DNA of 64,000 nucleotides from Lachnospiraceae bacterium (GCA_024698345.1 JAILRH010000187.1:443-64442), one strand, 5' to 3'; counted from the stretch's first letter, positions 1-56,154 are shown. A program made the numbers and translations. The notes: generated from the letters alone by a model not told the origin.

Positions 1-52
1 TGAAGGTTATCCTGGAAGTTCTTCCGCATCAAAGATTTTATTGAAAAGAATA

Positions 53-81
53 TTGATAAATATATTGGTATCTGATATAAT
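53..81 (+). promoter_or_regulatory. sigma-A-type promoter, leader copy A
   Basis: TTGATA (53-58), 17-nt spacer, extended -10 TGaTATAAT (73-81); same architecture recurs at 52302-52330. Confidence 0.6.
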
Positions 82-108
82 ACATATGTATTTATTTTTT
101 TGGTGTTT

Positions 109-216
109 CCTGACATAAGTTAATTGTCAGGGTAGTTTTTTGGTAGACATTATAAGTTTGCCGGTGGTAATTTCATAAGGCATGTATGTTAACAGCTTGA
201 GAAAGCTGTTTTTTTT
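109..216 (+). promoter_or_regulatory. structured 5' leader with three hairpins, the last an intrinsic terminator (copy A)
   Basis: H1 CCTGACA/TGTCAGG 109-131; H2 GGTAGAC/GTTTGCC (two G-U pairs) 142-162; H3 ACAGCTT/AAGCTGT 192-209 plus T-run to 216; then ATGCCC, A-run, GGAGG 230-234, ATG 242. Homologous copy at 52359-52465. Confidence 0.6.
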
Positions 217-241
217 ATGCCCAAAAAAAGGAGGAAGCGCT

Positions 242-409
242 ATGGATAAGATTTTAATTCAAGGTTGCGATCTTGCGGTAGAGGTTGGTGCAAGAGCAAA
301 AGTGTTGGTTAATGGCCAGTGGTTATTAACTAGCAAAGTATTAGAAGTTGTAAGAGCAGGAGCTTATGTTGAGATAACAACAAAGAATCATGTTTATGCA
401 ACTAAGTAG
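242..409 (+). CDS. small hypothetical protein (55 aa)
   Basis: ATG 242 lies 7 nt after GGAGG. The ORF-track start at 182 lies inside the leader terminator, so the start was moved. Confidence 0.5.
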   Translation: MDKILIQGCDLAVEVGARAKVLVNGQWLLTSKVLEVVRAGAYVEITTKNHVYATK

Positions 410-433
410 TCAATCATATCGGCGAGAAAGAAA

Positions 434-471
434 GGAGGAAGGGAGCTGCTAAGCGGCTCCCGATTTTATTT
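434..471 (+). promoter_or_regulatory. SD-hairpin-AUG translation-initiation element (1 of 6)
   Basis: GGAGG 434-438, 2 nt, stem GGGAGCTGC/GCGGCTCCC 441-461 (loop TAA), 10 nt GATTTTATTT, ATG 472. Confidence 0.55.
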
Positions 472-2142
472 ATGAGAATTGAAAAAAGAGAATTAAGAGA
501 ATTTGATTTTTCATTTACTGGATTTACTAATGCAATAGTAAAAACTGCAGAAGCAGTAGAAGAGAACCTGATGTCATACTTTGACAACGATAAACGTATT
601 CAATCGCTTGCCAAGGAGAAGATGGGTAAGGTTGTTAGGTCAGAAAGTGTATTTGTTGGGTTAAAGATAAGTAGATGTTGCGATTCTTTATTTAGCACGC
701 TCCGTTATTTAGCGGCAGCCTGTAAGTATTATAAGAAAGAAGTGATATCATTACTTAATAACGATTTAGATACGCTCAATGGCAGGCTTGCAAAACATGA
801 CATAGAAATAAGTGAATTAGTCGGAAGAGGATTGGAGGCTGATATAGCAAGAAGTAAATCGAAAACAGGTTACACTAAATTATTTTGTGCAGAGATAGTA
901 AAAGATGATGTAATTTACTATCAGTATGGTTCAGATGTTGGAACTAAATCTAAAGCTGTTGAGAGAAGTTGGTGCAGTACGAGTACCGGCGAAGTAGCTC
1001 AGGCAACAGATATAGTTAACCTTGTATGTCTGTGTTTCCTTATTGATGATATTAATAAGGAATTAAAAAAGAGTATATATGAGGATGTAGATTTGTTGAG
1101 TGACTATCTGAGTGTGTATGATATTTATGTATTATACAGGACTTCAAAGCAGGAAGACATATTACCATTTCTTGATTTGCCAATGTTTGGTAGTGATGAT
1201 ATTGCCAAACAGATATTAGGTGAGAAGGCTAGAAACATTAGAATTCTTGATGATAATTATATCAGAATGGTATGTGACAGACATTTTGAGCTTATTCCAC
1301 GAAAAGATACAGTAAGCTTCAAACGGAAGTATGTTGCTGATGATGTAACATTGTTGTACTTCTTAGACAATTATCGGTTTCTGATGAAGATTGACAGAAT
1401 AATTAAGACTTTATGCGTCAGAGCAGAGGCAAGGGAACGAAACTATAAGCATGAGCATACGGTTTCGGGTGATTACGCAAGAAGTTTTCAGACAAAAAAG
1501 AATATTCCAAATGCGACAGTAAAAGCGATGAAAAATTCAAGATTCAATAATTTCTTTGGATTTGTTGAGTTTGATGAGCTTGTCGATTTGAAGAAGATTG
1601 AAGAGATTGAAAAGGAATTTGAAGCTTTCAATCTTTTTTTGTTTGGAGAAAAAGGATTGGTTACTAAGAATGTTGAACTTAGATTCAGACGTCTTGGAAA
1701 TCATAAGGCAGCGGGTTTATATTATCCGTTTTTTAACTGTATCTGTATTGATATTAATAATCCTGGTAGTTTTGTACATGAGTACGGGCACATGCTTGAC
1801 TATACGAATGGCAATGCATCGGAAAAGGCTGAGTTTTACTCGCTTAGAGAATTGTATTGTGATGCAATGAAAAGAGCGGTAAAAGAACAGGATATAAAGC
1901 TTAAGGGTAAATACAATATGGATTACTATTCAACACCTACCGAGGTGTTTGCAAGGTGTTTCGAACTGTATATGTTTTACTGCAGAAAGATGTCAAACAA
2001 TATCTTGAAAGACATCGATGGTTTTGCATATCCAAATGACGAATTGTTTTTGAAACATGTCGATAAGTACTTTACAGCATTCTTTGAGAAATATTCAAAG
2101 AAGGAGAGTATTGGAGGTGAACAGAAATGTGCATCTACATAA
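472..2142 (+). CDS. HExxH zincin-like metallopeptidase-domain protein (556 aa), function unknown
   Basis: Long ORF. C-terminal FVHEYGHMLDY (HExxH) followed by TPTEVFARCFELY, reminiscent of ArdC/SprT-type and polyvalent-protein metallopeptidase modules of mobile elements. Confidence 0.55.
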   Translation: MRIEKRELREFDFSFTGFTNAIVKTAEAVEENLMSYFDNDKRIQSLAKEKMGKVVRSESVFVGLKISRCCDSLFSTLRYLAAACKYYKKEVISLLNNDLDTLNGRLAKHDIEISELVGRGLEADIARSKSKTGYTKLFCAEIVKDDVIYYQYGSDVGTKSKAVERSWCSTSTGEVAQATDIVNLVCLCFLIDDINKELKKSIYEDVDLLSDYLSVYDIYVLYRTSKQEDILPFLDLPMFGSDDIAKQILGEKARNIRILDDNYIRMVCDRHFELIPRKDTVSFKRKYVADDVTLLYFLDNYRFLMKIDRIIKTLCVRAEARERNYKHEHTVSGDYARSFQTKKNIPNATVKAMKNSRFNNFFGFVEFDELVDLKKIEEIEKEFEAFNLFLFGEKGLVTKNVELRFRRLGNHKAAGLYYPFFNCICIDINNPGSFVHEYGHMLDYTNGNASEKAEFYSLRELYCDAMKRAVKEQDIKLKGKYNMDYYSTPTEVFARCFELYMFYCRKMSNNILKDIDGFAYPNDELFLKHVDKYFTAFFEKYSKKESIGGEQKCAST

Positions 2143-2320
2143 TTGATAAAGAAACGAGAGAAACATATTCGTGTATTGATGAAGAAAAAGCCATAAACAC
2201 TGTACGTATATTGGCAGATTCAAAAGAAGAAGCGCAAGAGCAGTTGGAAATAATTGGTGATTTTGACCGATTGTTTGAAAAAGCATTTGAATTCAGGATT
2301 TAAAAAGGAGGACGGTTATT

Positions 2321-2947
2321 ATGTTAAATAACTCATATATACATTGTTTAATGGGAGGCAGTATCAAACTTAATGAGAGCGATATTGTAAAAATTGATGG
2401 TATTAATTTATGTGCGGGAGTAAAGTATGGAGTTCCATATGAATACCGCATTTATAAGTCATTGAGAATAGAAATTAAAAGGGATGGGAGAGATTTTACT
2501 CCTATTTTAGAGAGTGATGCAACCTATGTGGAACTTGAAGGTATCCTGTATAGTATGCCAATGAATAAGGGAAGTGATTTCAGAAATATTGATATTGCTA
2601 ACCAGAGGGTATTGTTTGAAGAAGATGCGGTAATAATTGAAGCACACAACATGGTAAATGATTGGTATATGCCAACATGCTTCAGAGAAAAATTACCGTT
2701 TCAGATCTATAACAAGCAGATATTCCTTAGTGGACATACTAATGCAGCGGCAAGTGTACGGAAAGTTAAAGGTAAGTTCGAAGTGATAGTGCTTGATAAA
2801 TTACAGGAATATGAACTTGAAAAACTTGGATTGCTTGAAAGTGGTAACAAAGTGCAGAAAGAATTACGTGCTTGGTATCCCGAGGTAATGGTTACTGAAA
2901 TTAGAAGGAGGATTGACAATGAATTCAGAAAATACAGTTATGTATAG
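2321..2947 (+). CDS. hypothetical protein (208 aa)
   Basis: ORF with AAGGAGGA 8 nt upstream of ATG 2321; no motif recognised. Confidence 0.6.
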   Translation: MLNNSYIHCLMGGSIKLNESDIVKIDGINLCAGVKYGVPYEYRIYKSLRIEIKRDGRDFTPILESDATYVELEGILYSMPMNKGSDFRNIDIANQRVLFEEDAVIIEAHNMVNDWYMPTCFREKLPFQIYNKQIFLSGHTNAAASVRKVKGKFEVIVLDKLQEYELEKLGLLESGNKVQKELRAWYPEVMVTEIRRRIDNEFRKYSYV

Positions 2948-3983
2948 TTACAAATGTATGCACAGACCTCCTTCACCGGGAGCTGTGCCAAAGGACGGAC
3001 TTGTAGATGTTAAGGATTTTGACATGCGTGATGAAAGTGGTTGTTACGGAGAGGTTGTTTACAATCGTGCTTTATCAAATAAAGAAGTTTGCGATTACGA
3101 ACTGGAGCCTTTGAAGGAAAAACCAAAAAATATGATGTTTATCAATGCTAAAAAGAGTGATGTAGACAATGCCGTTAAGAGAATTATATGTACAAAGGGT
3201 TTCGGTGAAAACTGCGACTGTGACGCATGTAAAGCTTATGATAACGGTGTTAATCCTGATGTGCTGATAATAGATTGTAAGAATGATGAGCTTGGTGTTT
3301 CTGATTTTAGAGATAAGCTTAAGCATTTTTATTTCAAATCTATTAATATGTCGGCAAATAAGGTGTTGCTTATTGATGGTGCTGATGAATTATCAGATAA
3401 AAAGCAGAACGCATTGCTTAAATTTATTGAGGATTATAACGATAAGGCTGTATTGATTGCTATGGCTGGTGAAGAGAAGAGAGTTCTTAAAACCGTCAGA
3501 TCAAGAGTTTTTGTTAAGAGGTATTCAAGTATACTTGCTTATACTGATTTTTGTGAATACTGCAAGGATAAGGCTATTGATAAGGCAAATATTTATTACC
3601 TTCTTACTGATGGTGATGTAAATGAAATCAAGTCAGTTAATAACGTTGAAATCTATTCAAATCTTATATTGGCAGTAGCAGGGAAGAATGTTGCTGATTA
3701 TTTCAATCTCTTACATATATCCAAAGAAAAGGATAAAGAAGTGATTGTTAATGACAGAAGCAGCATTTTGATGTGTTACAGGCTTATAAGAAATGTACTG
3801 CTCGATTGTTTTCTTGGGAAAATGAATAAAGAGCATATTCTTACAGTTGAAGGTACTGTTTGGAAAACAAAAGAACTTGCAAACAAGATTGTTGAGCTTG
3901 ATCTTGAAATTGAGAAGGTTAGGAACACTAACTCGTACAAAGCGAAGGAGTTTCAGAGCTTCTCGATTAACCTTTTTAGTTAA
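2919..3983 (+). CDS. holB: DNA polymerase III delta'-like clamp-loader subunit with about 70-aa N-terminal extension
   Basis: ATG 2919 lies 7 nt after GGAGG. No P-loop. Zinc module CDCDAC. KVLLIDGADELSDKKQNALLKFIEDYN (cf. ANALLKTLEEP). TVRSRVF (cf. TIxSRC sensor motif). Confidence 0.65.
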   Translation: MNSENTVMYSYKCMHRPPSPGAVPKDGLVDVKDFDMRDESGCYGEVVYNRALSNKEVCDYELEPLKEKPKNMMFINAKKSDVDNAVKRIICTKGFGENCDCDACKAYDNGVNPDVLIIDCKNDELGVSDFRDKLKHFYFKSINMSANKVLLIDGADELSDKKQNALLKFIEDYNDKAVLIAMAGEEKRVLKTVRSRVFVKRYSSILAYTDFCEYCKDKAIDKANIYYLLTDGDVNEIKSVNNVEIYSNLILAVAGKNVADYFNLLHISKEKDKEVIVNDRSSILMCYRLIRNVLLDCFLGKMNKEHILTVEGTVWKTKELANKIVELDLEIEKVRNTNSYKAKEFQSFSINLFS

Positions 3984-4021
3984 TTAGTTAGATAGTGTAT
4001 TATTTTTTAAATTTAAAAGAA

Positions 4022-4055
4022 GGAGGAAGATGTTTATATAACATCGATGTGTATT
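4022..4055 (+). promoter_or_regulatory. SD-hairpin-AUG translation-initiation element (2 of 6)
   Basis: GGAGG 4022-4026, 2 nt, stem GATGTT/AACATC 4029-4045 (loop TATAT), 10 nt, ATG 4056. Confidence 0.5.
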
Positions 4056-4385
4056 ATGAAGAAAGGTTTGAAATTATATAATATTTATTTAGAAAAAGAG
4101 GAGGAAGTATTATTTCGTATCGGAAACTATGACAGCAACGGAAACACATATGTACAGATGATTGGAGCAGATGGAGAGCCTTACGGAGATCTTACTGTTA
4201 ATTTTGAAACATTGAATGACGAGAGAAAGGCTTATATTGATACAAATAATAATCCAGGTATCTTGAAGTTCATTGAAGATAACGAGTTGGGTTTTTGGTT
4301 TGGTCTTGAAAAACAGAGTAATTTTTGTACGTATCCTCTTTATTATTTGGATCTTGAGGAAATTAAAAAATATGTTGTTGAATAG
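4056..4385 (+). CDS. small hypothetical protein (about 109 aa)
   Basis: ORF-track start is 4047. ATG 4056 is preferred by analogy with the fixed 10-nt hairpin-to-AUG spacing at five other genes. Confidence 0.6.
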   Translation: MKKGLKLYNIYLEKEEEVLFRIGNYDSNGNTYVQMIGADGEPYGDLTVNFETLNDERKAYIDTNNNPGILKFIEDNELGFWFGLEKQSNFCTYPLYYLDLEEIKKYVVE

Positions 4386-4397
4386 GAGGAAATGCGA

Positions 4398-5744
4398 ATG
4401 TTATACAACGAAGACAGGCCCTTAAGTCTTGATGAGCTTAGAGGGCATGAGATAAATAAACAAATATTTAGAAGTCAGCTGAAAAATCAGAAGTTTGGAC
4501 ATGCCTATCTGTTTGCCGGACACCATGGCTCCGGTAAAACTACGGTGGCTAGAATTTTTGGACGTGCAGCAGTGTGTGAACATCCAACGGAGAATGGTCC
4601 TTGTATGGAGTGCGAAGCCTGTAAGAGATTTGGTTCATCAATTGACTTTGTTGAGATTGATGCAGCATCAAATACGGGTGTAGATGCCATAAGAGATAAG
4701 GTTATCGAAGCTGTTAAGTACAAGCCGGCAGAATTAAAAAAGAAAATAATTCTTATTGATGAGGTTCATATGCTTTCAACTAGTGCATTCAATGCATTGT
4801 TAAAGACAGTAGAAGAACCGCCGGAGAATGTAATTATTTTTCTTTGTACAACCGAGCTTAATAAAGTTCCAAAAACTATTGTTTCAAGGTGTCAGAAATT
4901 CATTTTCGAGGGGATTCCTCAAAATGAAATTGAAGATGGGGTTTTTGATTCGGCAAAAAAGCATGGAATTGATATTGAACCTGACGCAGTAAGGCTTATT
5001 GCTAAGATTGCTGATGGGTCAATGAGAGATGCTCTTTCTTTGTTGGAACAGGCTTCATCAAGCGGCACTGTTACAGAGTCAATGGTTGCTGAAATGACAG
5101 GCTATGGTTCGGCTATAGCAGTAGAGAGTATTCTTGATGGATATGTGAATGCTGATTACGATTTGATGTTTCAAGGTGTTGAAGAGTTCTTAAGAACGAG
5201 CAGTGTTAATACTCTTATTGAAGCTTTGATGGAAAAACTGATTGACAGAATTGTTACACATGATGGTGTCGATTACATTCCTTTAGTAAACGGATTGTCG
5301 GAAATTAAAGGAAAAAATGTTAGTCAGGCAGCAATTAAGGTGGTTTTATATAAGGTTGGCTGTGAGGAGTCTAAAATAGCTGCTCTTGAAAAGAGAGTGA
5401 GCGAACTTGAAGAAGCATTGAAGAACGGAGTTGTTATTAGCAGTGATAGTGCTGAGGTTGTGACAGAAGATGTTCCAAGCAAAGTAGCAAACGAAGGTGT
5501 AAATGACGTTTCTGGGGCAGAAAGTGAAGCCAAGGGAACAAATACACCGGATAAGGATGAACGTAGCGAAGATGAGCTGTTAGAGGCGCTTAATGCTGCG
5601 GGATTTAGTGATGTTACAGTAGCGGAAGAAAATCCTTTTGAGGAACCAGTAGAAGTACCTGTTGTAAAGGAAGAAAAGGTTGTAGAAAAGAAGAAAGAAC
5701 CTGAAACTAAATTTCCGGGTTTTTCTTCACCCTGGGATTGGTAG
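4398..5744 (+). CDS. dnaX: DNA polymerase III gamma/tau subunit
   Basis: Walker A GHHGSGKTT, zinc module CMECEACKRF, Walker B ILIDEVHML, sensor TIVSRCQKF, acidic/Lys-rich C-terminal tail. ATG 4398 is 8 nt from GGAGG; the ORF-track ATG 4392 is only 2 nt away. Confidence 0.9.
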   Translation: MLYNEDRPLSLDELRGHEINKQIFRSQLKNQKFGHAYLFAGHHGSGKTTVARIFGRAAVCEHPTENGPCMECEACKRFGSSIDFVEIDAASNTGVDAIRDKVIEAVKYKPAELKKKIILIDEVHMLSTSAFNALLKTVEEPPENVIIFLCTTELNKVPKTIVSRCQKFIFEGIPQNEIEDGVFDSAKKHGIDIEPDAVRLIAKIADGSMRDALSLLEQASSSGTVTESMVAEMTGYGSAIAVESILDGYVNADYDLMFQGVEEFLRTSSVNTLIEALMEKLIDRIVTHDGVDYIPLVNGLSEIKGKNVSQAAIKVVLYKVGCEESKIAALEKRVSELEEALKNGVVISSDSAEVVTEDVPSKVANEGVNDVSGAESEAKGTNTPDKDERSEDELLEALNAAGFSDVTVAEENPFEEPVEVPVVKEEKVVEKKKEPETKFPGFSSPWDW

Positions 5745-5766
5745 TCTAAAAGGCTACCAGGATAAG

Positions 5767-5952
5767 TTGGCTTTATTGGTTGAAGATGCGGCTTTCCTTA
5801 AGCCTTTGGTTAAAAGATTGCGATACAAACAAGATAAAGAAGGAAATATTCATATTTGTGCACGATACAGATGTGTTGCAGAGATGATTAATCTTTTTGA
5901 TGTTTCAGAAATCGGAATTGACAAAATCGAGGTTGATGAAAGCCTGTTTTGA
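5767..5952 (+). CDS. doubtful small ORF (61 aa, TTG start, no SD)
   Basis: Only an open frame with protein-like composition between dnaX and the next SD-hairpin element. Confidence 0.25.
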   Translation: MALLVEDAAFLKPLVKRLRYKQDKEGNIHICARYRCVAEMINLFDVSEIGIDKIEVDESLF

Positions 5953-5965
5953 TATTTGTAAGAAA

Positions 5966-6003
5966 GGAGGACGGAGATACATTTTGTATCTCCTATATTT
6001 ATT
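5966..6003 (+). promoter_or_regulatory. SD-hairpin-AUG translation-initiation element (3 of 6)
   Basis: GGAGG 5966-5970, 2 nt, stem GGAGATAC/GTATCTCC 5973-5993 (loop ATTTT), 10 nt TATATTTATT, ATG 6004. Confidence 0.55.
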
Positions 6004-6354
6004 ATGAGTTTAATGGATATTATTTTTGGTTTAATGGAAAAAGCAGTGAATGCATATCATCATTCAGTCTATGTCAGAACAGACGTGGGCGGTGCTTACG
6101 AAGTATTCTTCTGGTTTAGCTTAATTGCTTTTGAGTGTATTGGTTTTACATATCTTGATGGATTCAAGAAAAGAGATGAGGTCTGGACCGTAATCATTTG
6201 TGTGTTATGGTGGCCGGCTTTAATTATTGGATTTACATACAGGAAGGCTGTACATGCAGTACATGATGCTTTACTTAAGTATGTTACAAAGCGAAAGAGA
6301 AGAAATGTAAGAAAATACAGAAAGGTAGGAAGCAGAAGTTATGCTGGAGAATAA
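6004..6354 (+). CDS. small membrane protein with basic tail (116 aa)
   Basis: Two to three hydrophobic helices (FFWFSLIAFECIGFTYL, VIICVLWWPALIIGFTY) then KRKRRNVRKYRK. Confidence 0.55.
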   Translation: MSLMDIIFGLMEKAVNAYHHSVYVRTDVGGAYEVFFWFSLIAFECIGFTYLDGFKKRDEVWTVIICVLWWPALIIGFTYRKAVHAVHDALLKYVTKRKRRNVRKYRKVGSRSYAGE

Positions 6355-7393
6355 TTTTTATCAGAGTACACAGAATATAGCGAAGGCGGGTGCTTACTAT
6401 ACAGATCTTGCACATTGTGCAAGACTTTCACAGGCATTTAATTGGCCTGAAGGGGAAGTGTCCGTTTTAGAGCCTAGTGCTGGAGATGGTGCAGCAGTTA
6501 TTGAGATAACAAATAATTGCGACAAGCCTAAAATTTTTGCTGTTGAGCTTCGTACAGAAGCATTCAGAGAGCTGAAAAATAATAGCAATATAACATGTGC
6601 TATAAATTGTGATTTTTTACAGGCGAAAATTTCAAATAATGTGTTTTCGTTTATGTTTGCAAATCCACCATATATAAACGGTATGGACGGAAGAATGGAA
6701 GTAGAGTTTTTACAACGTTCGACAAGATATATCGCGGAGGATGGAATTATAGTGTATGTAGTTCCTTATTCAGTGGCTACCAGTCGTGAATACTTGAGCT
6801 TTTTGCTTAGAAATTACAAAGTGATTCATGCGTTTCGTTTTGATGAAGCAGAGTATGAGAAGTATAAGCAGATAGTATTTATTGCTAGGAAGGTAAAGAA
6901 TGAGGGAATAGAGGAAGAGCTTCAAAGATATATGGCAATGAGAAAAGAAGATTTTCCATTGATTCCGGAGGTTTGGACTGATGAATACGAACTTGTTGAT
7001 GTAGAAGAAAGCCCTGAAAGTAAAATAGTTTACTTTTCGTCAAAGGAATTCAATAGGGAGGAAGCTTTTATTGATTTGTGTGAATGTGAGCCTCAGAAGA
7101 AAAATTTGGATGCCTTGAGTATCAAAGCATTTTCTGCTAATGATATGGGACGTCCACCGGTAATGCCTAATCAGAATGTGTTGTATTTACTTTCGACACT
7201 CGGTTGTGGTTCGGGTATTACTGGATCAGAAGATAATATGGATATTCATTTACAGCGAGGTAATGCAAGAATATGCGAGTATTCATTTGAAGAGGTTAAC
7301 GAAAAGGGTAATGTTGAAGCTGTTACTCAGAGGAGTACTAAAGTATCTGTAACGATATTGGAAAATGACGGGACATTTACAGTGCTTGAATAA
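6341..7393 (+). CDS. N6-adenine DNA methyltransferase (orphan)
   Basis: Motif I VLEPSAGDGA and motif IV FANPPY; no restriction endonuclease gene adjacent. Confidence 0.8.
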   Translation: MLENNFYQSTQNIAKAGAYYTDLAHCARLSQAFNWPEGEVSVLEPSAGDGAAVIEITNNCDKPKIFAVELRTEAFRELKNNSNITCAINCDFLQAKISNNVFSFMFANPPYINGMDGRMEVEFLQRSTRYIAEDGIIVYVVPYSVATSREYLSFLLRNYKVIHAFRFDEAEYEKYKQIVFIARKVKNEGIEEELQRYMAMRKEDFPLIPEVWTDEYELVDVEESPESKIVYFSSKEFNREEAFIDLCECEPQKKNLDALSIKAFSANDMGRPPVMPNQNVLYLLSTLGCGSGITGSEDNMDIHLQRGNARICEYSFEEVNEKGNVEAVTQRSTKVSVTILENDGTFTVLE

Positions 7394-7407
7394 TAAATAT
7401 TAAAGAA

Positions 7408-7447
7408 GGAGGAAAGGAGTCGCATTTTGCGGCTCCTGATTTGTGAA
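7408..7447 (+). promoter_or_regulatory. SD-hairpin-AUG translation-initiation element (4 of 6)
   Basis: GGAGG 7408-7412, 3 nt, stem GGAGTCGC/GCGGCTCC 7416-7436 (loop ATTTT, one G-U), 11 nt, ATG 7448. Confidence 0.55.
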
Positions 7448-10400
7448 ATGGAATTTAGTATAGGGTTTCAGACGATTTCATTAGATTTTGCAGTGGTTGC
7501 GAACGAGAAAGGCTATGTATACTCAATTTTTGACAGATCCGCAATGATGGTAAGAAGCATGGCGGTTCAGGCATCATTCGATTCGGTAGCTATTGAAGGG
7601 AAAACCTATGGTGTTCCAAGAAATTCAGAAGGTGATAGTTACAAGACTAAAAGATACATTGAAAGGTTCGAAAGTGGTAGGGACAGAGTTTCATCAGCGC
7701 TTATAGTCAATGGAGCTATAGGTGAAAAAGTATTTTTGACTGATGATAAAGGTAAATATGATGATTTCTACAACTTTCTTATGAACAACTATACCTTACC
7801 GTTGCTTAAAGAGTGGTCGGGCTATCTTTATGATGGTCTTGTTCGTTCTTATTTTGTAAGTGAATACAGGAATGCTGTTATTGGTGAGAGACTTGAAAGA
7901 GAGATTACTCTTAATGGCAGAAATATTAGACTTGATGAAATGATTCTTGTTGATTGCAGCAGTCTTGATGAGGAATTTCTTAAGCGACAGGTAAGTACGG
8001 GACTTTCAAGTAAGAAGATTTGTATTACCGAGTTACCGGTTAAAAAACTTGAATTTGAAAATCTTGATGAGTATTACCAGAAGTATGGAAAGAATATCGT
8101 AGAAAACTTAGAAAGGGTTATCGATCCTTTGAATGAGATTGATGGCTATTGTCCGTATGTTGCTACAAAGTCGAAAAGACTTTTTCCGGCACAGGCTAAT
8201 GGTGTTAATGCTTATATTAAAAAGTTTGAAACATCAAATGGTGCCATAGCCAATATGGATATGGGTACTGGAAAAACACTGCAGGCGTTAACAACCTTTG
8301 ACGGCTTTTTTAATAAAAAGCAGATGAGTCAGGGGAAGACACTTAAACAGGTGATTGATGAAGATTGCGTTAATTATGTTGGTGCAGTCCTTTGTCCGTC
8401 GCATTTGGTTAGCAAATGGGTAAGTGAGGTCAGTGAATTGCCTAATGCTCACGCAGAAGCAGTTACTTCGTTGGCTCAGCTTATTAAGATTAACGAAAAC
8501 AGAAACTTATACAAAAAGGGAAAGCATATTTTTGTTTTCTCTAAAGATTTTGCAAAACTTGGGGATATGAGGGCGCCAATTCCTACTACGGTAAGTCGTG
8601 TGTTGAGAGCCCCTTATGTTCAGTATTGTGTTGATTGTCATAAGAATACTGGCAATTACAGGTACAGGCAGTTTGGTGACAGAGTATGTAGGCATTGTGG
8701 TGGAAATAATTGGAGAAAATCATTATCAAGAGAGGTGTCGGGTAATGCAGTTCTTTGTCCTCATTGTAATGAGGTTTTAATTAAGAACACAACTAAAAAG
8801 ATTGACAAAAACAGTTATCCGGAGATTCTTACTCCTGTTGATTTTTCAAGTGAAACTTCTGCTAACAGAAAATGTTACAACTGTTTAAATCCTCTTTGGG
8901 GAGCCCAGGTAAAAAATAAAGGAGACGGTTATAAATACAAGTGGAAAAAACTTGGATATTATACCAATAAAAGCCGAAAAGGAACGAGTACAGCTTGGAT
9001 TCTTGACGGTTTTAAGAGTAGCTTCATGTCAGTAAAGAACTTGAAAGAGGATGAAGTGTGGGAATCATCTAATATAGGTGTAAGAAAGTATTCGCCTGCA
9101 AGATATATTCAAAAACACATGAAAAACTTTTTTGACTTTTTTATTGCGGACGAAGCTCATATGTATGAATCATCATCTGCACAGGGACAGGCATTTGCTT
9201 CGCTTGCGAAAGTGTCAAAGAAGACTTTGGCACTTACAGGAACACTGACTAACGGTTATGCAAAAGGCTTGTTTTATCTGTTTTGGAGAATAATACCTCA
9301 GAAAATGGTTGATATGGGGTATGAATTTTATGGCAGAGATGGTGTAGGAAAGTGGAATTACACATATGGTGTTTTAGAGAAGAGAACTGAGTATACGGAA
9401 GAAGAACTTAAATACAATACTTCATCTCGCGGGAAAAAAGACTCTGGGATGTTTAAAGAAAGACCGGGTGTTTCACCGCGGCTTATGAAGGATTTTCTTT
9501 TAGAAGATGTAATTCAGTTACAGATTTCAGACTTGAGTGAGGGGCTGCCTGAACTTAAGGAAGAGATTGTGTCTGTTGAGCCTGAGAAAGAAGTAGTAAG
9601 TAGTCTTAATTCGCTTACGAATACACTTAAGAATTGGGCCAGCAATAATAAATGCCCTGCAATTAATATTGCAGCTTTAAGGTACCAGCTTTTTTATACC
9701 GATCAGCCGTATGACATACCACCAATATTAAGTCCTTTAACGAGGGGGGATATAGTAGCTGCACCGGATAATTATCCTGATTTGGTGGCAAATGGAGGTT
9801 TGTTAAAGAAGGAAATAAAACTTGTTGAAATCGTAAAGAAAGAGCTTGAGGAAGGAAGAAGATGTTATGTGTTTTTGGAAAATACAGGTAAATCGGAATT
9901 TTTCCTCTTAAAACGTATTAAAAAGGTTTTGGAAGAAAATGTTCCTTGTGCTAAGCCTCTCATTATGGAAGCCAATTCAACTTCTGCAAGTAAAAGAGAA
10001 GACTGGATGAAAAATAAGATTGAGAAGGAAAAGTACAATATTGTTATTTCTAACCCAAGACTTGTTGAAACAGGAATCGATTTTGTGTGGAAAGCAAAAA
10101 ACGGTGAGGGTTATAACATTCCAACAATTGTATTTTATCAGGTAGGTTGGTCGCTTGCTACTTTATGGCAGGCATCAAGAAGACACTACCGTTTGATACA
10201 GAAAGAACAGTGTCGTACATATTATATTGTGTGCGAAGGAACTATGCAGCTTGAATGTCTTCAGATGATGGCAGAAAAACAGGTTGCTGTGTCGGCCATT
10301 CAGGGCGGCGAGTTCTCATCAAGAGGACTTTCGTCTATGGCAAAAGGTGTTGACCCAAAGATTGAGCTGGCAAAAAGAATGCTCGCAGGTGAGCATTCAG

Positions 10401-10684
10401 ATGTGGATGATGTAAAGGAAATGTTTAAAAATATTTCCTTGAGTGGAAGCCGGTCATGGGATTGCAAACAGAATTTGTTGATTTCAGATATTACTACTAC
10501 TGTAGTAAAGACGGCAGAAAAACCAAGTTTGTTTGACGAATCTACATGGGGCGATGAATGGTTTGCATCGTTCTTTGGATCTATAAAAGAAGAATTTGAA
10601 AATGAAAAGAGTAAAAGCAAATCAAAGAAAAGAAAGGAGAAGAATAAACTCGAACAGTTAACACTCTTCGATTTATTCGAGTGA
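7448..10684 (+). CDS. SNF2-family helicase with zinc-ribbon insertions
   Basis: Motif I DMGTGKT, motif II FIADEAHMY, motif III LTGTLTNG, motif VI QASRRHYRLIQ. Four CxxC pairs (CVDCHK, CRHCGG, CPHCNE, CYNCLN). The ORF-track TTG 7427 lies inside the hairpin, so ATG 7448 is used. Confidence 0.85.
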   Translation: MEFSIGFQTISLDFAVVANEKGYVYSIFDRSAMMVRSMAVQASFDSVAIEGKTYGVPRNSEGDSYKTKRYIERFESGRDRVSSALIVNGAIGEKVFLTDDKGKYDDFYNFLMNNYTLPLLKEWSGYLYDGLVRSYFVSEYRNAVIGERLEREITLNGRNIRLDEMILVDCSSLDEEFLKRQVSTGLSSKKICITELPVKKLEFENLDEYYQKYGKNIVENLERVIDPLNEIDGYCPYVATKSKRLFPAQANGVNAYIKKFETSNGAIANMDMGTGKTLQALTTFDGFFNKKQMSQGKTLKQVIDEDCVNYVGAVLCPSHLVSKWVSEVSELPNAHAEAVTSLAQLIKINENRNLYKKGKHIFVFSKDFAKLGDMRAPIPTTVSRVLRAPYVQYCVDCHKNTGNYRYRQFGDRVCRHCGGNNWRKSLSREVSGNAVLCPHCNEVLIKNTTKKIDKNSYPEILTPVDFSSETSANRKCYNCLNPLWGAQVKNKGDGYKYKWKKLGYYTNKSRKGTSTAWILDGFKSSFMSVKNLKEDEVWESSNIGVRKYSPARYIQKHMKNFFDFFIADEAHMYESSSAQGQAFASLAKVSKKTLALTGTLTNGYAKGLFYLFWRIIPQKMVDMGYEFYGRDGVGKWNYTYGVLEKRTEYTEEELKYNTSSRGKKDSGMFKERPGVSPRLMKDFLLEDVIQLQISDLSEGLPELKEEIVSVEPEKEVVSSLNSLTNTLKNWASNNKCPAINIAALRYQLFYTDQPYDIPPILSPLTRGDIVAAPDNYPDLVANGGLLKKEIKLVEIVKKELEEGRRCYVFLENTGKSEFFLLKRIKKVLEENVPCAKPLIMEANSTSASKREDWMKNKIEKEKYNIVISNPRLVETGIDFVWKAKNGEGYNIPTIVFYQVGWSLATLWQASRRHYRLIQKEQCRTYYIVCEGTMQLECLQMMAEKQVAVSAIQGGEFSSRGLSSMAKGVDPKIELAKRMLAGEHSDVDDVKEMFKNISLSGSRSWDCKQNLLISDITTTVVKTAEKPSLFDESTWGDEWFASFFGSIKEEFENEKSKSKSKKRKEKNKLEQLTLFDLFE

Positions 10685-12921: not shown

Positions 12922-15900
12922 ATGGGGAGTAATCTTGATCTTTTTAGGAATAGAACAATACAAACAAAAACGATTTGTCAAAAATTAATCCCAATGGGTA
13001 AAACGAGGGAAACAATTGAAAAATACAATCTTATGGAAATTGACAGAAAAATAGCAGAAAATAAGGAACTGATGAACAAGCTGTTCAGTCTTATAGCAGG
13101 CAAGCATATAAATGATACACTTGCTAAATGTACTGATTTGAATTTTATTCCAATATTTGAGGGAATTACGGCACTAAATCAAGCAAAAGAGAACAATAGA
13201 GATAATTTGAGAGATTACTATGATACTGTTTTCGAAGCGAGAAAAAGTGTAGCAGAAGAAATTTCATCAAGATTAATAGAGTTGAAGTTTGCGGGAAAAG
13301 ATTTCTTCACTAAGATTATTCCTGATTTCTTGGAAAAATATAATGGTAAAGATAAAAATGAAATGAGTGAACTTGTATCGTTAGTAGTTGAAAATACCGC
13401 AACTGCTGGGTATGTAAAAAAACTCGAGAAAATAGATAATTCAATGGGTGTAAAATTGGTATCTGGGACAGTTGTAAAGAGGGTATTGACGGATAATACA
13501 GATATTTACGAAAAAAATATTGCACATACTAGAAATTTTGACTATGGAGTATTGCAAATTGAAGAATCAACTCAGTTTATGACTTTAGATTGGAAAGATT
13601 ATTCAAATTATATAACAGCTGATGGAATAGCTTTATATAATGCCATTATTGGAAAAATCAACCTTGCACTTAATGAATACTGCCAAAAGAATAAGGAATA
13701 TTCTTTTAATAAGTTGGCTCTTTTACCATTGCAAAAGATGTTGTACGGAGAAAAAACGAGTCTTTTTGAAAAATTGGAAGATTTTAGCTCTGATGATGAA
13801 CTTATAAACGCATATAACTCATTTATAAAAACAGTAAATGATTGTAAAATTGCTGAGAATATCAAAAAGACCATACCTTCTTATGATGAAATTATGATTA
13901 AGACTAACAAAATCAATTATTATTCTAATGTTATTACTGGTCAATGGTCAGCTGTTAATAGAGCCATGAAAGACTTTTTGGAAGATAATGGAATTAAAAA
14001 TGCCGATAAATATATGGAAAAAGGACTTACAGCATCAGAAATAGAAGATGCTTTGGAACATAAGAATATTAAACACACAGATTTTATATCAAATCTTATT
14101 ACAGATTTAGGTCATACTTATGCAGAAATTAAAGAAAATAAGGAATCGCTGAAAAAAGATGATTCCTTAAATTCAGTAATAATAAAAAAAGAATTGGATA
14201 AGTTGCTTTCAGTATTGCAAAACTTAAAGGTATTGGATGTGGATAATGAGATTTTTGATACAGGTTTTGGAATTGAGGTTTCTAAAACAATTGAAGTTTT
14301 GGGATTTGGTGTTCCTCTGTACAATAAAATTAGAAATTATATTACAAGGAAACCTGATCCAAAGAAAAAGTTTTTGACAAAATTTGGTTCAGCAACTATT
14401 GGAACAGGTTTAACAACAAGTGTTGAGGGTTCAAAAAGGGCAACGTTCATAAAAGATGGTGATGCTGTATTTCTTCTCTTATATAACGGCTATGGATGTA
14501 AAGCAAACAATATATCTGTAAGCAACCTTGCTGCGATTATTAATTCCGAACTTAGAGATACTAATAATGGCAATTCATATCAGAAGATGATATATCAGAC
14601 ACCTGGGGATATTAAAAAACAGATTCCAAGAGTGTTCGTTTACAAGTCTGAGGATGAAGAGTTGATTAAAGACTTCAAAGCAAAACTTCATAAAACGGAT
14701 TTATCATTTTTAAATGAAAGATTAATCCCTTATCTTAAAGAAGCCTTCGCAAATCATGAAACTTATAAGAATTATAAATTTAGCTATAAAAACAGTTATG
14801 AGTCATATGATGAATTTTGTGAGCATATGTCAGAACAGGCATATATCCTTGAATGGCAATGGATTGACAAGAAACTAATTGATGACTTGGTTGAAGATGG
14901 CTCTCTTTTGATGTTCAGAGTATGGAATAGATTTATGAAGAAAAAGGACGGGAAAATAAGCAAACATGCTAAAATTATAAACGAGCTTTTCTCTGAGAGA
15001 AACACATCAAATGCAGCAATTAAGCTGTTAAGTGTGTTTGATATTTTCTATCGAGATAAACAGATTGATAATCCTATCGTACATAAGGCTGGTTCTACTC
15101 TTTATAACAAGAGATCGAAGGACGGAGAAGTAATCTCTGATTATTCTTCAATGGTTAAGAATAAAGAAAAAAGAGAAAACGTTTATACTACAACTAAAAA
15201 GTACGATATAATCAAAGATAGAAGATATACTGAAGAGCAATTTGAATTACATATCCATGTTCAACTTGGAAAAGAAGAGAATAAAGAGATCCTTGAAACT
15301 TCAAAACTTATAAACGAAAAAAAGAATACTTTAGTAGTGACAAGAAGTAATGAGCATTTGCTTTATGCAGTAGTGTTTGACGAAAATGATAATATTCTTC
15401 TCAAAAAATCATTAAATACAGTTAAGGGTATGAACTTTAAATCAAAACTTGAAGCAGTAGAGATTCAGAAAAAGGAAAATATGCAGAGCTGGAAGACAGT
15501 TGGCAGTAATCATGCATTAATGGAAGGTTATCTTTCTTTCGCAATAAAGGAAATTGCTGATTTGATTAAGGAATATGATGCAATTCTTGTTTTAGAACAG
15601 AATTCTATTGGTAAAAATCTTCTTAACGAGCGTGTTTATACAAGATTTAAGGAGATGCTTCTTACTAACTTGTCATTGGATATAGATTACGTGAACAATG
15701 ACTTTTATTCATATACGGAAGTTGGGCAAAAGGTTAGTTCTTGGAGAGATTCTGTAACTAATGGAATCTGTATTCAGGTACCATCTGCTTATAAGTATAA
15801 GGACCCGACAACTACTTATTCTCCGGTAAGTATGTATGCAAAAACAACAGCAGAAAAAACTAAAAAACTCAAGCAAATCAAATCATTTAAGTATAATCGA

Positions 15901-16335
15901 GAAAAAGGTTTGTTTGAATTGGTTATTGCAAAAGGAGTAGGGCTTGAGAATAACATTGTATGTGATTCCTTTGGAGCAAGAAGTACTATTGAGAATGATA
16001 TCGCCAAAGAAGTAAACTGCACCATTAAGATTGAAAAATATCTCATTGATGCAGGTATCGAATACAATGATGAAGGGGAAATACTGAAAGAACTTGATAC
16101 TGCAACAAAGACAGATGCAGTTCATAAGGCGATATCTTTATTATTAAAGTGCTTTAATGACGAAGCAGGTGGAAGATATTACATATCGCCTTGTGGAGAA
16201 CACTTTACTTTATATGATACCCCTGAAGTATTATCTGCAATCAACTATTACATACGAAGTCAATACATAAGGAGACAGATTGTAGAAGGTGTAAAAAAAG
16301 TAGACTACAAGAAAATAATTCTACTTGCAGGATAA
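12922..16335 (+). CDS. cas12a: Cas12a (Cpf1)-family type V-A effector with substituted RuvC-I/Nuc residues
   Basis: ATG 12922 lies 5 nt after GGAGG. KTICQKLIPMGKT N-terminus; WED His/Lys/Lys triad region; RuvC-II AILVLEQ. RuvC-I reads LVVTRSNEHLLY instead of IGIDRGERNLLY. A canonical Cas12a-type repeat array follows immediately downstream. Confidence 0.9.
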   Translation: MGSNLDLFRNRTIQTKTICQKLIPMGKTRETIEKYNLMEIDRKIAENKELMNKLFSLIAGKHINDTLAKCTDLNFIPIFEGITALNQAKENNRDNLRDYYDTVFEARKSVAEEISSRLIELKFAGKDFFTKIIPDFLEKYNGKDKNEMSELVSLVVENTATAGYVKKLEKIDNSMGVKLVSGTVVKRVLTDNTDIYEKNIAHTRNFDYGVLQIEESTQFMTLDWKDYSNYITADGIALYNAIIGKINLALNEYCQKNKEYSFNKLALLPLQKMLYGEKTSLFEKLEDFSSDDELINAYNSFIKTVNDCKIAENIKKTIPSYDEIMIKTNKINYYSNVITGQWSAVNRAMKDFLEDNGIKNADKYMEKGLTASEIEDALEHKNIKHTDFISNLITDLGHTYAEIKENKESLKKDDSLNSVIIKKELDKLLSVLQNLKVLDVDNEIFDTGFGIEVSKTIEVLGFGVPLYNKIRNYITRKPDPKKKFLTKFGSATIGTGLTTSVEGSKRATFIKDGDAVFLLLYNGYGCKANNISVSNLAAIINSELRDTNNGNSYQKMIYQTPGDIKKQIPRVFVYKSEDEELIKDFKAKLHKTDLSFLNERLIPYLKEAFANHETYKNYKFSYKNSYESYDEFCEHMSEQAYILEWQWIDKKLIDDLVEDGSLLMFRVWNRFMKKKDGKISKHAKIINELFSERNTSNAAIKLLSVFDIFYRDKQIDNPIVHKAGSTLYNKRSKDGEVISDYSSMVKNKEKRENVYTTTKKYDIIKDRRYTEEQFELHIHVQLGKEENKEILETSKLINEKKNTLVVTRSNEHLLYAVVFDENDNILLKKSLNTVKGMNFKSKLEAVEIQKKENMQSWKTVGSNHALMEGYLSFAIKEIADLIKEYDAILVLEQNSIGKNLLNERVYTRFKEMLLTNLSLDIDYVNNDFYSYTEVGQKVSSWRDSVTNGICIQVPSAYKYKDPTTTYSPVSMYAKTTAEKTKKLKQIKSFKYNREKGLFELVIAKGVGLENNIVCDSFGARSTIENDIAKEVNCTIKIEKYLIDAGIEYNDEGEILKELDTATKTDAVHKAISLLLKCFNDEAGGRYYISPCGEHFTLYDTPEVLSAINYYIRSQYIRRQIVEGVKKVDYKKIILLAG

Positions 16336-16449
16336 ACAATCCTCAGTCTTGATGAGGGAGGAATAGAATTGTATATGTTAAAATGTACAAGTATGAGCTT
16401 TATTGATTATTAGATGATGTAATATTTTGTGCATTTTGACAATATACGA

Positions 16450-16917
16450 GTTAAATTAATAATAAATGTCTACTATACTGTAGATAACTATATTGTTAGG
16501 TATATTGCGTCGTTAAATTAATAATAAATGTCTACTATACTGTAGATAGAGATATGGTTGTGCATAGTATTTCAGTTAAATTAATAATAAATGTCTACTA
16601 TACTGTAGATCTGCTTAGGTCTGTTGCAAATGCAAGAGTTAAATTAATAATAAATGTCTACTATACTGTAGATTTATCCATTGTTAAGTTCTTAATAAAC
16701 TTAAATTAATAATAAATGTCTACTATACTGTAGATTGATAGCAGTTTCCACTGTTTTCTGCGTTGAATTAATAATAAATGTCTACTATACCGTAGATTCG
16801 ATTTGCTTAGACCATCAATAGAGAGTTAAATTAATAATAAATGTCTACTATGGTGTAGATAACTGATAGAGAAAGAGTGAAACAGACTTAAATAAAAATG
16901 TCTATCATAGCATAGTT
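16450..16917 (+). CRISPR. type V-A CRISPR array, 7 spacers
   Basis: 36-nt repeat GTTAAATTAATAATAAATGTCTACTATACTGTAGAT at 16450, 16512, 16575, 16638, 16700, 16762 and 16825, plus a truncated degenerate copy at 16887-16917. Spacers are 26-27 nt. The repeat 3' end forms the Cas12a handle UCUAC-loop-GUAGA-U. Confidence 0.95.
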
Positions 16918-50901: not shown

Positions 50902-51534
50902 TTGAAAAAGTCTAGAGCTTTAGATTTGTTCAAGAGAAAGGAGGAAGTAGCAATTTATTATTGCTGCGATTGTAATATGAAAAGACCAGGAAATTATGTT
51001 GATGATGGATTAAGAATAGGGGTAGATGAGCTTACTATCATATTTGGCAGTGCGTCTGTTAGGCGAAATATATTTGAAGATGTTAATAATAACGTCCAAT
51101 TGGAAGATGTTGCAAATAAATATAATATGACGGTAGATATTGCAAAGAAAAAATATTTCTCTGCATATATGAGATGTCGAGAGTTTATGATGTATAAGGA
51201 TAATCCTACTTCTGTTAGATATTTGAAGGCAGTGCGCAAAATAGATAGGCGAATTGCAAATCGATTGTTGAGAGCAGGCATTTATGATATGAATGTTTTC
51301 AGTCGTCGCAAAATTGAAGATGTTATTTCACAGTATGATGATGTGGGATTATCTGTAAAAACTATATATGATACTTGTCAAAAATTAAATATCAGTACTA
51401 TGTATAATAATTCGAATGTTGACAATGGTGATGTAGTGGAAAATGTAATATCTAAATTAGTGGCACGGTATGGGATTGATGCTGTTAAAAAGGCTGTTAA
51501 TGAATATCAACCCAATAATGCTATTAATCTATGA
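50902..51534 (+). CDS. hypothetical protein with RNA polymerase alpha-CTD-like helix-hairpin-helix segment
   Basis: IDRRIANRLLRAGIYDMNVFSRRKIEDVISQYDDVGLSVKTIYDTCQKLNI resembles LSVRSANCLKNAGI...L...NFGKKSLEEI..L. Start uncertain (TTG in the track; an SD sits at 50937-50943). Confidence 0.4.
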   Translation: MKKSRALDLFKRKEEVAIYYCCDCNMKRPGNYVDDGLRIGVDELTIIFGSASVRRNIFEDVNNNVQLEDVANKYNMTVDIAKKKYFSAYMRCREFMMYKDNPTSVRYLKAVRKIDRRIANRLLRAGIYDMNVFSRRKIEDVISQYDDVGLSVKTIYDTCQKLNISTMYNNSNVDNGDVVENVISKLVARYGIDAVKKAVNEYQPNNAINL

Positions 51535-52284: not shown

Positions 52285-52301
52285 CGGCCAAGCAAATGCT
52301 A

Positions 52302-52330
52302 TTGAAAAAAATATATATATTTGATATAAT
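52302..52330 (+). promoter_or_regulatory. sigma-A-type promoter, leader copy B
   Basis: TTGAAA 52302-52307, 17 nt, TGaTATAAT 52322-52330. Confidence 0.6.
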
Positions 52331-52358
52331 ACTATTGTATTTATTTTTTTTGGTGTTT

Positions 52359-52465
52359 CCTAGCATAAGATAATTGCTAGGGTGGTATTTTGACAGATAT
52401 GATAAGTCTGTCGGTAGTTTTTATATAAGCATAATTACAAGCAGCTTTTATAAGCTGTTTTTTTT
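52359..52465 (+). promoter_or_regulatory. structured 5' leader with three hairpins ending in a terminator (copy B)
   Basis: H1 CCTAGCA/TGCTAGG 52359-52381; H2 GACAGA(T)/(G)TCTGTC 52392-52412; H3 CAGCTT/AAGCTG 52440-52459 plus T-run to 52465; then ATGCC, A-run, SD, ATG 52493. Confidence 0.6.
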
Positions 52466-52492
52466 ATGCCAAAAAAGAAGGGAGGAAGCTAT

Positions 52493-54257: not shown

Positions 54258-54273
54258 ATTATAAAAATAAAAA

Positions 54274-54306
54274 GGAGGAAGATGCTATTTAGCATCGATA
54301 TGAATT
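54274..54306 (+). promoter_or_regulatory. SD-hairpin-AUG translation-initiation element (5 of 6)
   Basis: GGAGG 54274-54278, 2 nt, stem GATGCT/AGCATC 54281-54296 (loop ATTT), 10 nt, ATG 54307. Confidence 0.5.
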
Positions 54307-56109: not shown

Positions 56110-56115
56110 TAGAAA

Positions 56116-56154
56116 GGAGGATGAGAGCTGCGTTTTGCGGCTCTCTATATTTAT
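56116..56154 (+). promoter_or_regulatory. SD-hairpin-AUG translation-initiation element (6 of 6)
   Basis: GGAGG 56116-56120, 2 nt, stem GAGAGCTGC/GCGGCTCTC 56123-56145 (loop GTTTT, one G-U), 9 nt, ATG 56155. Confidence 0.55.

Follow-up and report, generated by a model that had tools for sequence, protein, structure and literature searches.

Background

The closest described counterparts of the leaders reported here are the split (noncontiguous) ribosome-binding sites of bacteriophage T4 genes 38 and 25. In these, a hairpin lying wholly between the Shine-Dalgarno sequence (SD) and the start codon cuts the spacing between the two from 22 to 5 nt (gene 38) and from 27 to 11 nt (gene 25) (PMC3014915), and mutations that destabilise the stem lower translation (PMC3014915; PMC7297116). 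The term "split RBS" has been applied alike to sites of the T4 type and to those of Escherichia coli thrS and rpmE, where the ribosome also tolerates a stable hairpin in the mRNA track (PMC3936740; PMC7297116). In thrS and rpmE, however, the hairpin parts a standby or enhancer region from an adjoining SD and AUG, and it is the operator of an autoregulatory protein. A strong SD-like sequence away from the start codon, in one case beside a stem-loop, is also found in the STAB-SD or polypurine 5' stabilisers of Bacillus mRNAs (cryIIIA, phage SP82), which sit near the transcript 5' end and are followed by an RBS of their own. Lastly, intercistronic hairpins, in the form of internal intrinsic terminators, occur in the long conAn-type operons of Gram-positive conjugative elements (PMC8191782, PMC8955417).

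Here we describe seven composite leaders in a 64,000-nt stretch of DNA from a Lachnospiraceae bacterium (JAILRH010000187.1:443-64442, assembly GCA_024698345.1; hereafter "the window"), together with their relatives in other elements. As in T4, the linear stretch from SD to AUG is too long (28-35 nt here as against 22 and 27 nt in T4), the hairpin lies wholly between the two so that the spacing becomes 5 and 11 nt in T4 and 11-12 nt here, and the structure is kept in relatives and absent from distant ones that have ordinary spacing (PMC3014915 for T4). Unlike T4, where single genes of a Gram-negative phage are concerned, seven genes in one element and at least 40 unique sites are involved in a Lachnospiraceae plasmid family, the SDs are very long (up to 10 nt complementary to the anti-SD), a variant with AGUA/GAA at the stem base occurs, and function, tested in T4, is predicted from sequence. 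In contrast to thrS and rpmE, the hairpin parts the SD itself from the AUG; in contrast to the Bacillus stabilisers, the composites are intercistronic and come without another RBS; and in contrast to conAn-type operons, they lack an uninterrupted U-run, hold a fixed place between SD and AUG, and are found in an element in which we identified no conAn homologue. Our survey of the literature outside subscription journals returned only the T4, thrS and rpmE cases, and no multi-gene or Gram-positive plasmid use.

Seven composite leaders in a conjugative element

The window has a G+C content of 34% and carries essentially all of its genes on the + strand. The SNF2-family protein encoded at 7448-10684 matches an NCBI protein of a Lachnospiraceae MAG at 100% identity. 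Judged by its predicted genes, the window has the content of a Gram-positive conjugative plasmid or element: LPD1, DarA_C, DUF4313, a DUF6094 methylase, SNF2, DpnD/PcfM and JAB, E2 and ThiF-like genes, clamp-loader subunits, an AAA_10 (VirB4-like) ATPase, a lysozyme/NlpC-P60 hydrolase and a SpaA-repeat surface protein, with a Rep3 initiator encoded on one syntenic relative. A megablast of positions 1-8000 against phage and plasmid collections gave zero matches. Rfam 15 at the gathering score recovered nothing in the window or in three of its relatives (L005, L056 and L057), and a permissive Rfam scan of window positions 1-8000 found nothing at the composite sites.

Scanning every GGAGG in the window yielded seven composites (Table 1), i.e., the six that the first-pass annotation had listed, all present as placed, and a seventh ahead of the gene at 50977 that it had missed. 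They are confined to 50.9-56.2 kb and 0.4-7.5 kb, with none in the T4SS-like transfer block (17-47 kb), and a duplicated promoter, leader and terminator module heads both composite-bearing operons. The stems fall into paralogous groups: those at 472, 7448 and 56155 form one and those at 4056 and 54307 another, and each group holds a compensatory change (G-C to A-U in composite 7 relative to composite 1, and U-A to C-G in the second group). As the stems are paralogous within the element, the seven sites are not independent inventions, and from the sequences it appears that a cassette was copied within the element.

Table 1. Anatomy of the seven composite leaders of the window. Energies are minimum free energies (MFE, kcal/mol) of the SD-to-ATG interval, for composite 2 that of the hairpin; z compares each SD-to-ATG interval with 1000 dinucleotide shuffles of the same interval; G·U is the number of such pairs in the stem.
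Composite	Span	Strand	SD (position)	GGAGG	SD-stem gap	Stem arms (position)	Loop	Spacer	ATG	MFE	z	G·U	Downstream gene
1	429-474	+	AGAAAGGAGG (429-438)	434	AA	GGGAGCUGC/GCGGCUCCC (441-461)	UAA	GAUUUUAUUU (462-471)	472	-17.4	-4.5	1	LPD1-domain gene (Pfam LPD1), 472-2142
2	4020-4058	+	AAGGAGG (4020-4026)	4022	AA	GAUGUU/AACAUC (4029-4045)	UAUAU	GAUGUGUAUU	4056	-5.3	-1.8		DUF4313 gene, 4056-4385
3	5961-6006	+	AGAAAGGAGG (5961-5970)	5966	AC	GGAGAUACA/UGUAUCUCC (5973-5993)	UUU	UAUAUUUAUU	6004	-12.4	-6.2		116-aa gene, 6004-6354
4	7406-7450	+	AAGGAGG (7406-7412)	7408	AA	AGGAGUCGCA/UGCGGCUCCU (7415-7437)	UUU	GAUUUGUGAA	7448	-16.5	-4.9		SNF2-family helicase, 7448-10684
5	50935-50979	+	AGAAAGGAGG (50935-50944)	50940	AA	GUAGCAAU/AUUGCUGC (50947-50967)	UUAUU	GAUUGUAAU	50977	-9.7	-3.2	1	185-aa gene, 50977-51534
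6	54271-54309	+	AAAGGAGG (54271-54278)	54274	AA	GAUGCU/AGCAUC (54281-54296)	AUUU	GAUAUGAAUU	54307	-7.2	-3.2		Prok-JAB and DpnD/PcfM gene (Pfam), 54307-56109
7	56111-56157	+	AGAAAGGAGG (56111-56120)	56116	AU	GAGAGCUGCG/UGCGGCUCUC (56123-56145)	UUU	UAUAUUUAU	56155	-16.3	-5.4	2	248-aa gene, 56155-56901

The geometry is the same at all seven sites: GGAGG, 2 nt, a stem of 6-10 bp closed by a loop of 3-5 nt, then 9-10 nt and an ATG that opens a long ORF. The hairpins span 16-23 nt and yet the flanking gaps stay constant, so that the unpaired SD-to-ATG distance is 11-12 nt throughout while the linear distance is 28-35 nt. The linear range and the quoted stem sequences agree with those of the first-pass annotation; its unpaired distances (12, 12, 12, 14, 12 and 11 nt) stand with one exception, the 14 given for 7448, which becomes 12 when the flanking A-U pair is counted. 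Five of the seven hairpins are strong, and the AT-rich pair (4056 and 54307; composite 2 is the weakest) is marginal taken alone. Checking the genes of the window also bore out that most others have an ordinary SD, which at nearly all of them lies 4-10 nt from the start, and that none of the seven composite genes has a nearer one; a search of the composite spacers for an SD-like tetramer found none.

Related elements and orthologous junctions

Relatives were retrieved by aligning SNF2 homologues (55 genome loci, 80 metagenome loci and four closer-relative contigs), and the comparative sample consists of loci around this one marker gene. Composites with unrelated stems are present in relatives whose SNF2 proteins are only 34-53% identical to that of the window: six in L056/L062 (SNF2 51% identical over the alignment), six to seven in L005 (34%), five in L057 (49%), three to four each in L060/L061 and L093 and in L097 and L104, and one each in L001 and L058. 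Within this family the hairpins span 15-32 nt, 2 nt most commonly separate the SD from the stem and 9-10 nt the stem from the ATG, and the mode of the unpaired spacing is 10-12 nt.

A first, lax pattern scan that allowed G·U pairs freely and any start codon gave 13 matches against 3-5.5 expected; it was too permissive and was replaced by a strict census and a distance-defined test. The strict census, which covered 2.19 Mb, returned 48 matches on the gene strand, 40 of them unique, and none on the opposite strand.

The junction upstream of SNF2 carries a composite in six elements (the window, L001, L056, L058, L060 and L093). Their stem pairs were tabulated by hand, the unrelated stems being beyond what MAFFT could register, and share a purine-rich base (GGGAAG/CUUCCC-like) below apical halves that are unrelated in sequence but paired. 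L057 and many other relatives have an ordinary SD 5-9 nt before that start codon, frequently preceded by a hairpin, and L026 has the order SD, hairpin, SD, ATG. The junction downstream of SNF2 is of the ordinary kind in 32 cases and composite in 6-8. This same alternation at two junctions implies that the SD switches sides of the hairpin in evolution while the start codon stays fixed. The genes syntenic with that behind composite 3 also have composites with unrelated stems in L056 (ATG 6793) and L057 (ATG 7517).

Spacing and RNA structure across the family

Support for two modes of spacing comes from a histogram of the distance between GGAGG and the first ORF-opening ATG, to which no hairpin criterion was applied. 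The distribution is bimodal, with a main peak at 5-10 nt, a second at 26-35 nt (mode 33) and a shoulder at 38-42 nt; distances of 13-25 nt are almost lacking. Ordinary SDs in the window's element have their mode at 7-8 nt. We considered and rejected the idea that a hairpin had simply been inserted into a normal RBS, as the spacing without it would be 12 nt and thus longer than the normal 7-8 nt. In length and in strength, the composite SDs exceed the ordinary SDs found in the elements that carry them (p = 6e-6 and p = 1.6e-4), a comparison in which GGAGG is present in both sets and the elements are ones picked for containing composites.

Choosing intervals by distance (24-46 nt, no nearer SD) gave 50 cases, of which 42 contain one well-placed hairpin, i.e., one starting at most 6 nt past the SD and ending 5-14 nt before the ATG, as compared with 4.4 ± 1.9 in shuffles (maximum 12 in 200); the mean MFE of the 50 is -10.7 kcal/mol as compared with -4.1 ± 0.23 kcal/mol, the elements again being ones picked for their composites and the shuffles matching base composition only. 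Hairpins are thus roughly tenfold enriched over shuffles in these distance-chosen intervals. When G·T and A·C mismatches were permitted equally in the same picked elements, the stems proved to contain 19 G·U pairs and not a single A·C (p = 4e-6). Because they hold G·U and never A·C, the structure lies in the sense-strand RNA, and the same count rules out a DNA-level palindrome or operator. In the predicted ensemble the probability of being unpaired is 0.07 for the stem, 0.57 (mean) for the SD and 0.59 for the AUG. The SD of the composites lies outside the stem, in which they differ from SD-sequestering riboregulators and RNA thermometers.

An SD that is free in this conformation could still be masked in another, and the first-pass annotation had proposed such a switch, in which the end of the 3' arm (CUCC or CUCUC) pairs with the upstream GGAGG and turns translation off. 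The stems of the window's clade do have purine-rich, SD-like 5' arms (purine fraction 0.7-1.0) and anti-SD-like 3' arms (0-0.3), as exemplified by the L060 stem AAGGAGAG/CUCUCCUU. However, structures with the SD:3'-arm pairing enforced lie +11.0, +2.9, +8.5 and +6.5 kcal/mol above the MFE at the four candidate sites, the complementarity is absent at three window sites and at all sites of the AGUA/GAA variant described below, and a nascent 3' arm encounters the neighbouring 5' arm first. With the pairing unfavourable at each candidate site, we consider the switch very unlikely.

Start codons

The conserved N-terminus of the SNF2 proteins (M-x-A-x-I-G-F-Q...LDF) begins, in an N-terminal alignment, at the ATG that follows the hairpin, and NCBI protein P0001 has the same start as ATG 7448. 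An in-frame stop 0-2 codons ahead of this ATG excludes other SNF2 starts in L093 and L056. The alignment thereby fixes ATG 7448 as the conserved start in preference to TTG 7427: the extension from 7427 is not conserved, nor is that of the public gene call for L058, which starts inside the stem. At composite 2, the in-frame ATG 4047 follows the stem by 1 nt, and the 3 unpaired nt that part it from the SD are too few. The naive longest-ORF starts at 4047, 7427 and 50902 are probably wrong, and automated gene calling that looks for an SD no more than about 13 nt away would miscall composite starts.

These data also bear on the idea that the strong SD serves a tiny upstream ORF or a start inside the hairpin, with the main ATG reached by termination-reinitiation coupling. 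TTG 5984 and TTG 56135 do start mini-ORFs whose ends form ATGA overlaps, TTG 7427 shares the frame of SNF2, and ATGs 4030 and 54282 come directly after the SD. Against this, the candidate codons are not at a working spacing from GGAGG, being either 13-14 nt or as little as 3 nt away; a canonical start 4-11 nt past the SD is found at none of the seven window sites and at six of the 40 family sites; the reading frames differ from site to site; and the extension from 7427, besides not being conserved, is made impossible by the in-frame stops in L093 and L056. A mini-ORF explanation is largely refuted by these observations, and we regard it as exceedingly improbable.

Hairpins as terminators or stabilisers

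The hairpins could alternatively be leaky intra-operon terminators or RNA-processing or stability elements, whose placement between SD and AUG would be secondary. Such elements, acting mainly on transcription or decay, might attenuate downstream expression, cap the 3' end of the upstream message or, with a ribosome bound at the SD, serve as 5' stabilisers of the STAB-SD/SP82 kind, and these modes are compatible with split-RBS function. Several features fit: three of the seven window hairpins (441, 5973 and 56123) pass a lax terminator filter, the composite spacers of the window are rich in U, a U7 tract immediately follows the stem ahead of ATG 2085 in L060, and in most relatives the SNF2 junction has a hairpin and U-tract that precede an ordinary SD. 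There are also the promoter, leader and terminator modules ahead of both composite operons, and in Gram-positive conjugation operons internal terminators are overridden by processive antitermination (PMC8191782, PMC8955417). Because such modules are duplicated here and antitermination systems are known (PMC8191782), weak termination at a few sites becomes more plausible.

On the other hand, a U-run immediately past the stem is reported as critical for terminator function (PMC8955417), and none of the seven window hairpins is directly followed by UUU, the next bases being GAU or UAU instead, while the convincing terminators of the window (46390, 52439, 60505 and 191) have T runs of 7-8. Across the family, TTTT occurs within 6 nt of the stem in six of 42 hairpins, and 6-10 of the 42 are U-rich past the stem; the stems of the AGUA/GAA variant are followed by GAAG, not by a U-run. 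A terminator would furthermore leave the downstream genes without a usable SD and predicts neither the fixed gap of 9-10 nt to the AUG nor the bimodal distance distribution. Termination, which the first-pass annotation had offered as its alternative, is thus poorly matched by the window hairpins, and as the primary explanation we consider it, together with processing and stability, unlikely. RNase III sites were rejected as well, stems of 6-11 bp being too short for this enzyme.

A variant with AGUA and GAA at the stem base

Four relatives (L005, L057, L118 and L124) hold 14 sites of a second form, here called variant B, of which the window has none. In it, an invariant 5'-AGUA and GAA-3' flank hairpins with unrelated stems, and 6-10 nt follow before the ATG. 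Permuted-motif controls for AGUA/GAA gave only trivial 4-bp chance stems. A scan of viral contigs, which doubles as a negative control, found 33 loci with the linear signature of variant B and a closed hairpin in none of them, from which it follows that variant B in its exact form is not a general phage feature.

AGUA and GAA in this orientation match the canonical sarcin-ricin (bulged-G) module (PMC1865062), and variant B agrees with its consensus in having the two on opposite strands and abutting a Watson-Crick helix. On the far side, L057 has a U·G flank, L118 U·U, L124 A·A and L005 G·G; of these, the first two are of types that the module tolerates, namely G·U or U·U flanking pairs (PMC8450098). 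If AGUA/GAA stacks on the stem, the unpaired spacing would be 7-11 nt, near that of variant A. Variant B makes it conceivable that initiation involves an RNA 3D module.

Variant B is also where a regulated gate is at its most attractive. In that reading the hairpin is the site of a plasmid or host RNA-binding protein, a helicase or a ribosome-associated factor, or else a temperature-sensitive element, so that one factor would switch the translation of establishment and anti-restriction genes together, with AGUA/GAA as its recognition element in variant B. The device is indeed limited to one functional region (LPD1, DUF4313, SNF2, JAB/PcfM) and absent from the T4SS-like block, the flanks are constant within an element while the stems vary (AGUA-stem-GAA at 14 sites in four elements), and the canonical sarcin-ricin module is a known protein-recognition surface (PMC1865062, PMC8450098). 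However, the stem and loop sequences have nothing in common between sites and would require recognition of shape only, no candidate regulator was identified, the AGUA/GAA module is absent from the window's own variant, and its closing pair is not clearly canonical in L005. We consider such a gate quite unlikely.

Composites as candidate split ribosome-binding sites

Given the constant geometry, the bimodal distance, the G·U pairs, the conservation in relatives and the position of the start codon, all of which agree with the earlier proposal of split ribosome-binding sites under selection for structure, we consider it reasonably likely that the composites are split (noncontiguous) sites of the T4 gene 25/38 type. 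A strong, extended SD 28-35 nt 5' of the AUG would be recognised by the 30S subunit, and the short hairpin, which starts 2 nt past the SD and stops 9-10 nt short of the AUG, would be looped out on it, leaving the SD-anti-SD helix and the start codon 11-12 unpaired nt apart, a value that agrees with the 11 nt of T4 gene 25 (PMC3014915), and permitting initiation. We infer this bridging by the 30S, for which the hairpin would be needed or which it would enhance, and the step from structure to translation is the part of the reading that is argued by analogy with T4. The spacing of 11-12 nt is 3-4 nt above the ordinary optimum, and the width of the helix end comes on top of it, so the composite sites may be suboptimal by design or may work in another way.

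It is also probable that the hairpin has a second role of its own, in stability or insulation, since relatives keep hairpins upstream of ordinary SDs at the same junctions. It may protect the message by capping the 3' end of the cistron before it and, together with a ribosome on the SD, by blocking the 5' end of the cistron after it. The module of about 45 nt would be a portable, context-insulated RBS cassette that is copied within each element.

We further postulate, as a speculation to which we assign a low probability, that the SD-hairpin-spacer-AUG unit of about 45 nt is a self-insulating cassette that spreads both within and between plasmids, and that in one lineage the sarcin-ricin stem base either docks onto the platform of the 30S subunit or serves a dedicated factor as its recognition site. 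Were this the case, it would mean coordinated translational control of establishment and anti-defence genes, and Gram-positive mobile DNA would contain a modular translation-initiation element of a new class.

Conclusions

The class of mechanism proposed here is known; what is new is its systematic, cassette-like use in Lachnospiraceae conjugative plasmids and the AGUA/GAA variant. As dozens of natural versions of a single geometry, the composites lend themselves to toeprinting, cryo-EM and reporter studies, and, if split-site function holds, they would supply context-insulated RBS parts for the engineering of Clostridia. It would then follow that the Firmicute 30S subunit routinely tolerates hairpins of 15-32 nt placed between the SD and the start codon, and that the split ribosome-binding site, so far a matter of a few single-gene curiosities (T4 genes 38 and 25), would become a systematic design principle in Gram-positive plasmids.

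Gene content and operon leaders of the plasmid

The plasmid harbors a type V-A CRISPR system, composed of a Cas12a/Cpf1-like gene and an array with spacers of ca. 26 nt, whose repeat (GTTAAATTAATAATAAATGTCTACTATACTGTAGAT, 36-37 nt) carries the type V-A handle; no cas1, cas2 or cas4 was noticed near them in the window. A weak Rfam match to CRISPR-DR6 inside the SNF2-family helicase coding sequence (7638-7665; 22.8 bits, E = 0.39, under the gathering score) is almost certainly due to chance. The clustered Prok-E2_D, Prok-JAB + DpnD/PcfM and ThiF genes form a plasmid ubiquitin-like conjugation/deconjugation set.

Each of the two operons bearing composites (SD, hairpin, 9-10 nt and ATG, read as split ribosome-binding sites) has one copy of a promoter/leader module in front. 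The copies share 86% identity and a strong promoter (TTGAtA-17-TGnTATAAT), and their first leader hairpins differ by compensatory changes (CCUGACA...UGUCAGG vs. CCUAGCA...UGCUAGG). This duplicated module may act as an attenuator or antitermination leader.

Features of the window and of loci from relatives
Feature	Location	Strand	Remarks
Module copy 1, ~200 nt	window 40-250		promoter, structured leader, hairpin then T8
Module copy 2, ~200 nt	window 52290-52500		promoter, structured leader, hairpin then T8
Cas12a/Cpf1-like protein, 1137 aa	window 12922-16335	+	RuvC_1, Cpf1 REC2 and PI-like domains
CRISPR array	window 16449-16860		adjoins Cas12a/Cpf1-like gene; 7-8 repeats
Prok-E2_D protein	window 53574-54257
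Prok-JAB + DpnD/PcfM protein	window 54307-56109		gene bears a composite
ThiF (E1-like) protein	window 58304-59032
SNF2 homologue start region	L058 9982-10027; also L059 ~258		hairpin overlaps public gene call

Probable structured ribosome-binding sites and start codons

Within the window clade (the window and the related loci L001, L056, L058, L060 and L093), the 5' arms of the composite stems are strongly purine-rich and SD-like (e.g., GGGAAG, AAGGAGAG), and the 3' arms are pyrimidine-rich and anti-SD-like (purine fraction 0.7-1.0 vs. 0-0.3). Variant-B stems, i.e., those with AGUA/GAA at the stem base, lack this bias. Candidate explanations for the window-clade pattern are an origin by SD duplication or the avoidance of an SD-like 3' arm. 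In another relative (L026, ~1030-1075), the region 5' of the SNF2 homologue reads SD, hairpin (GGUUCC/GGAACC), second SD and ATG, an order that could be an evolutionary intermediate between ordinary and split arrangements.

At L058, the public call for the SNF2 homologue, P0005 (1079 aa), takes as its start codon an ATG within the hairpin 5' arm. N-terminal conservation points to the ATG 24 nt downstream, giving 1071 aa. Gene callers are misled by structured ribosome-binding sites of the composite kind.
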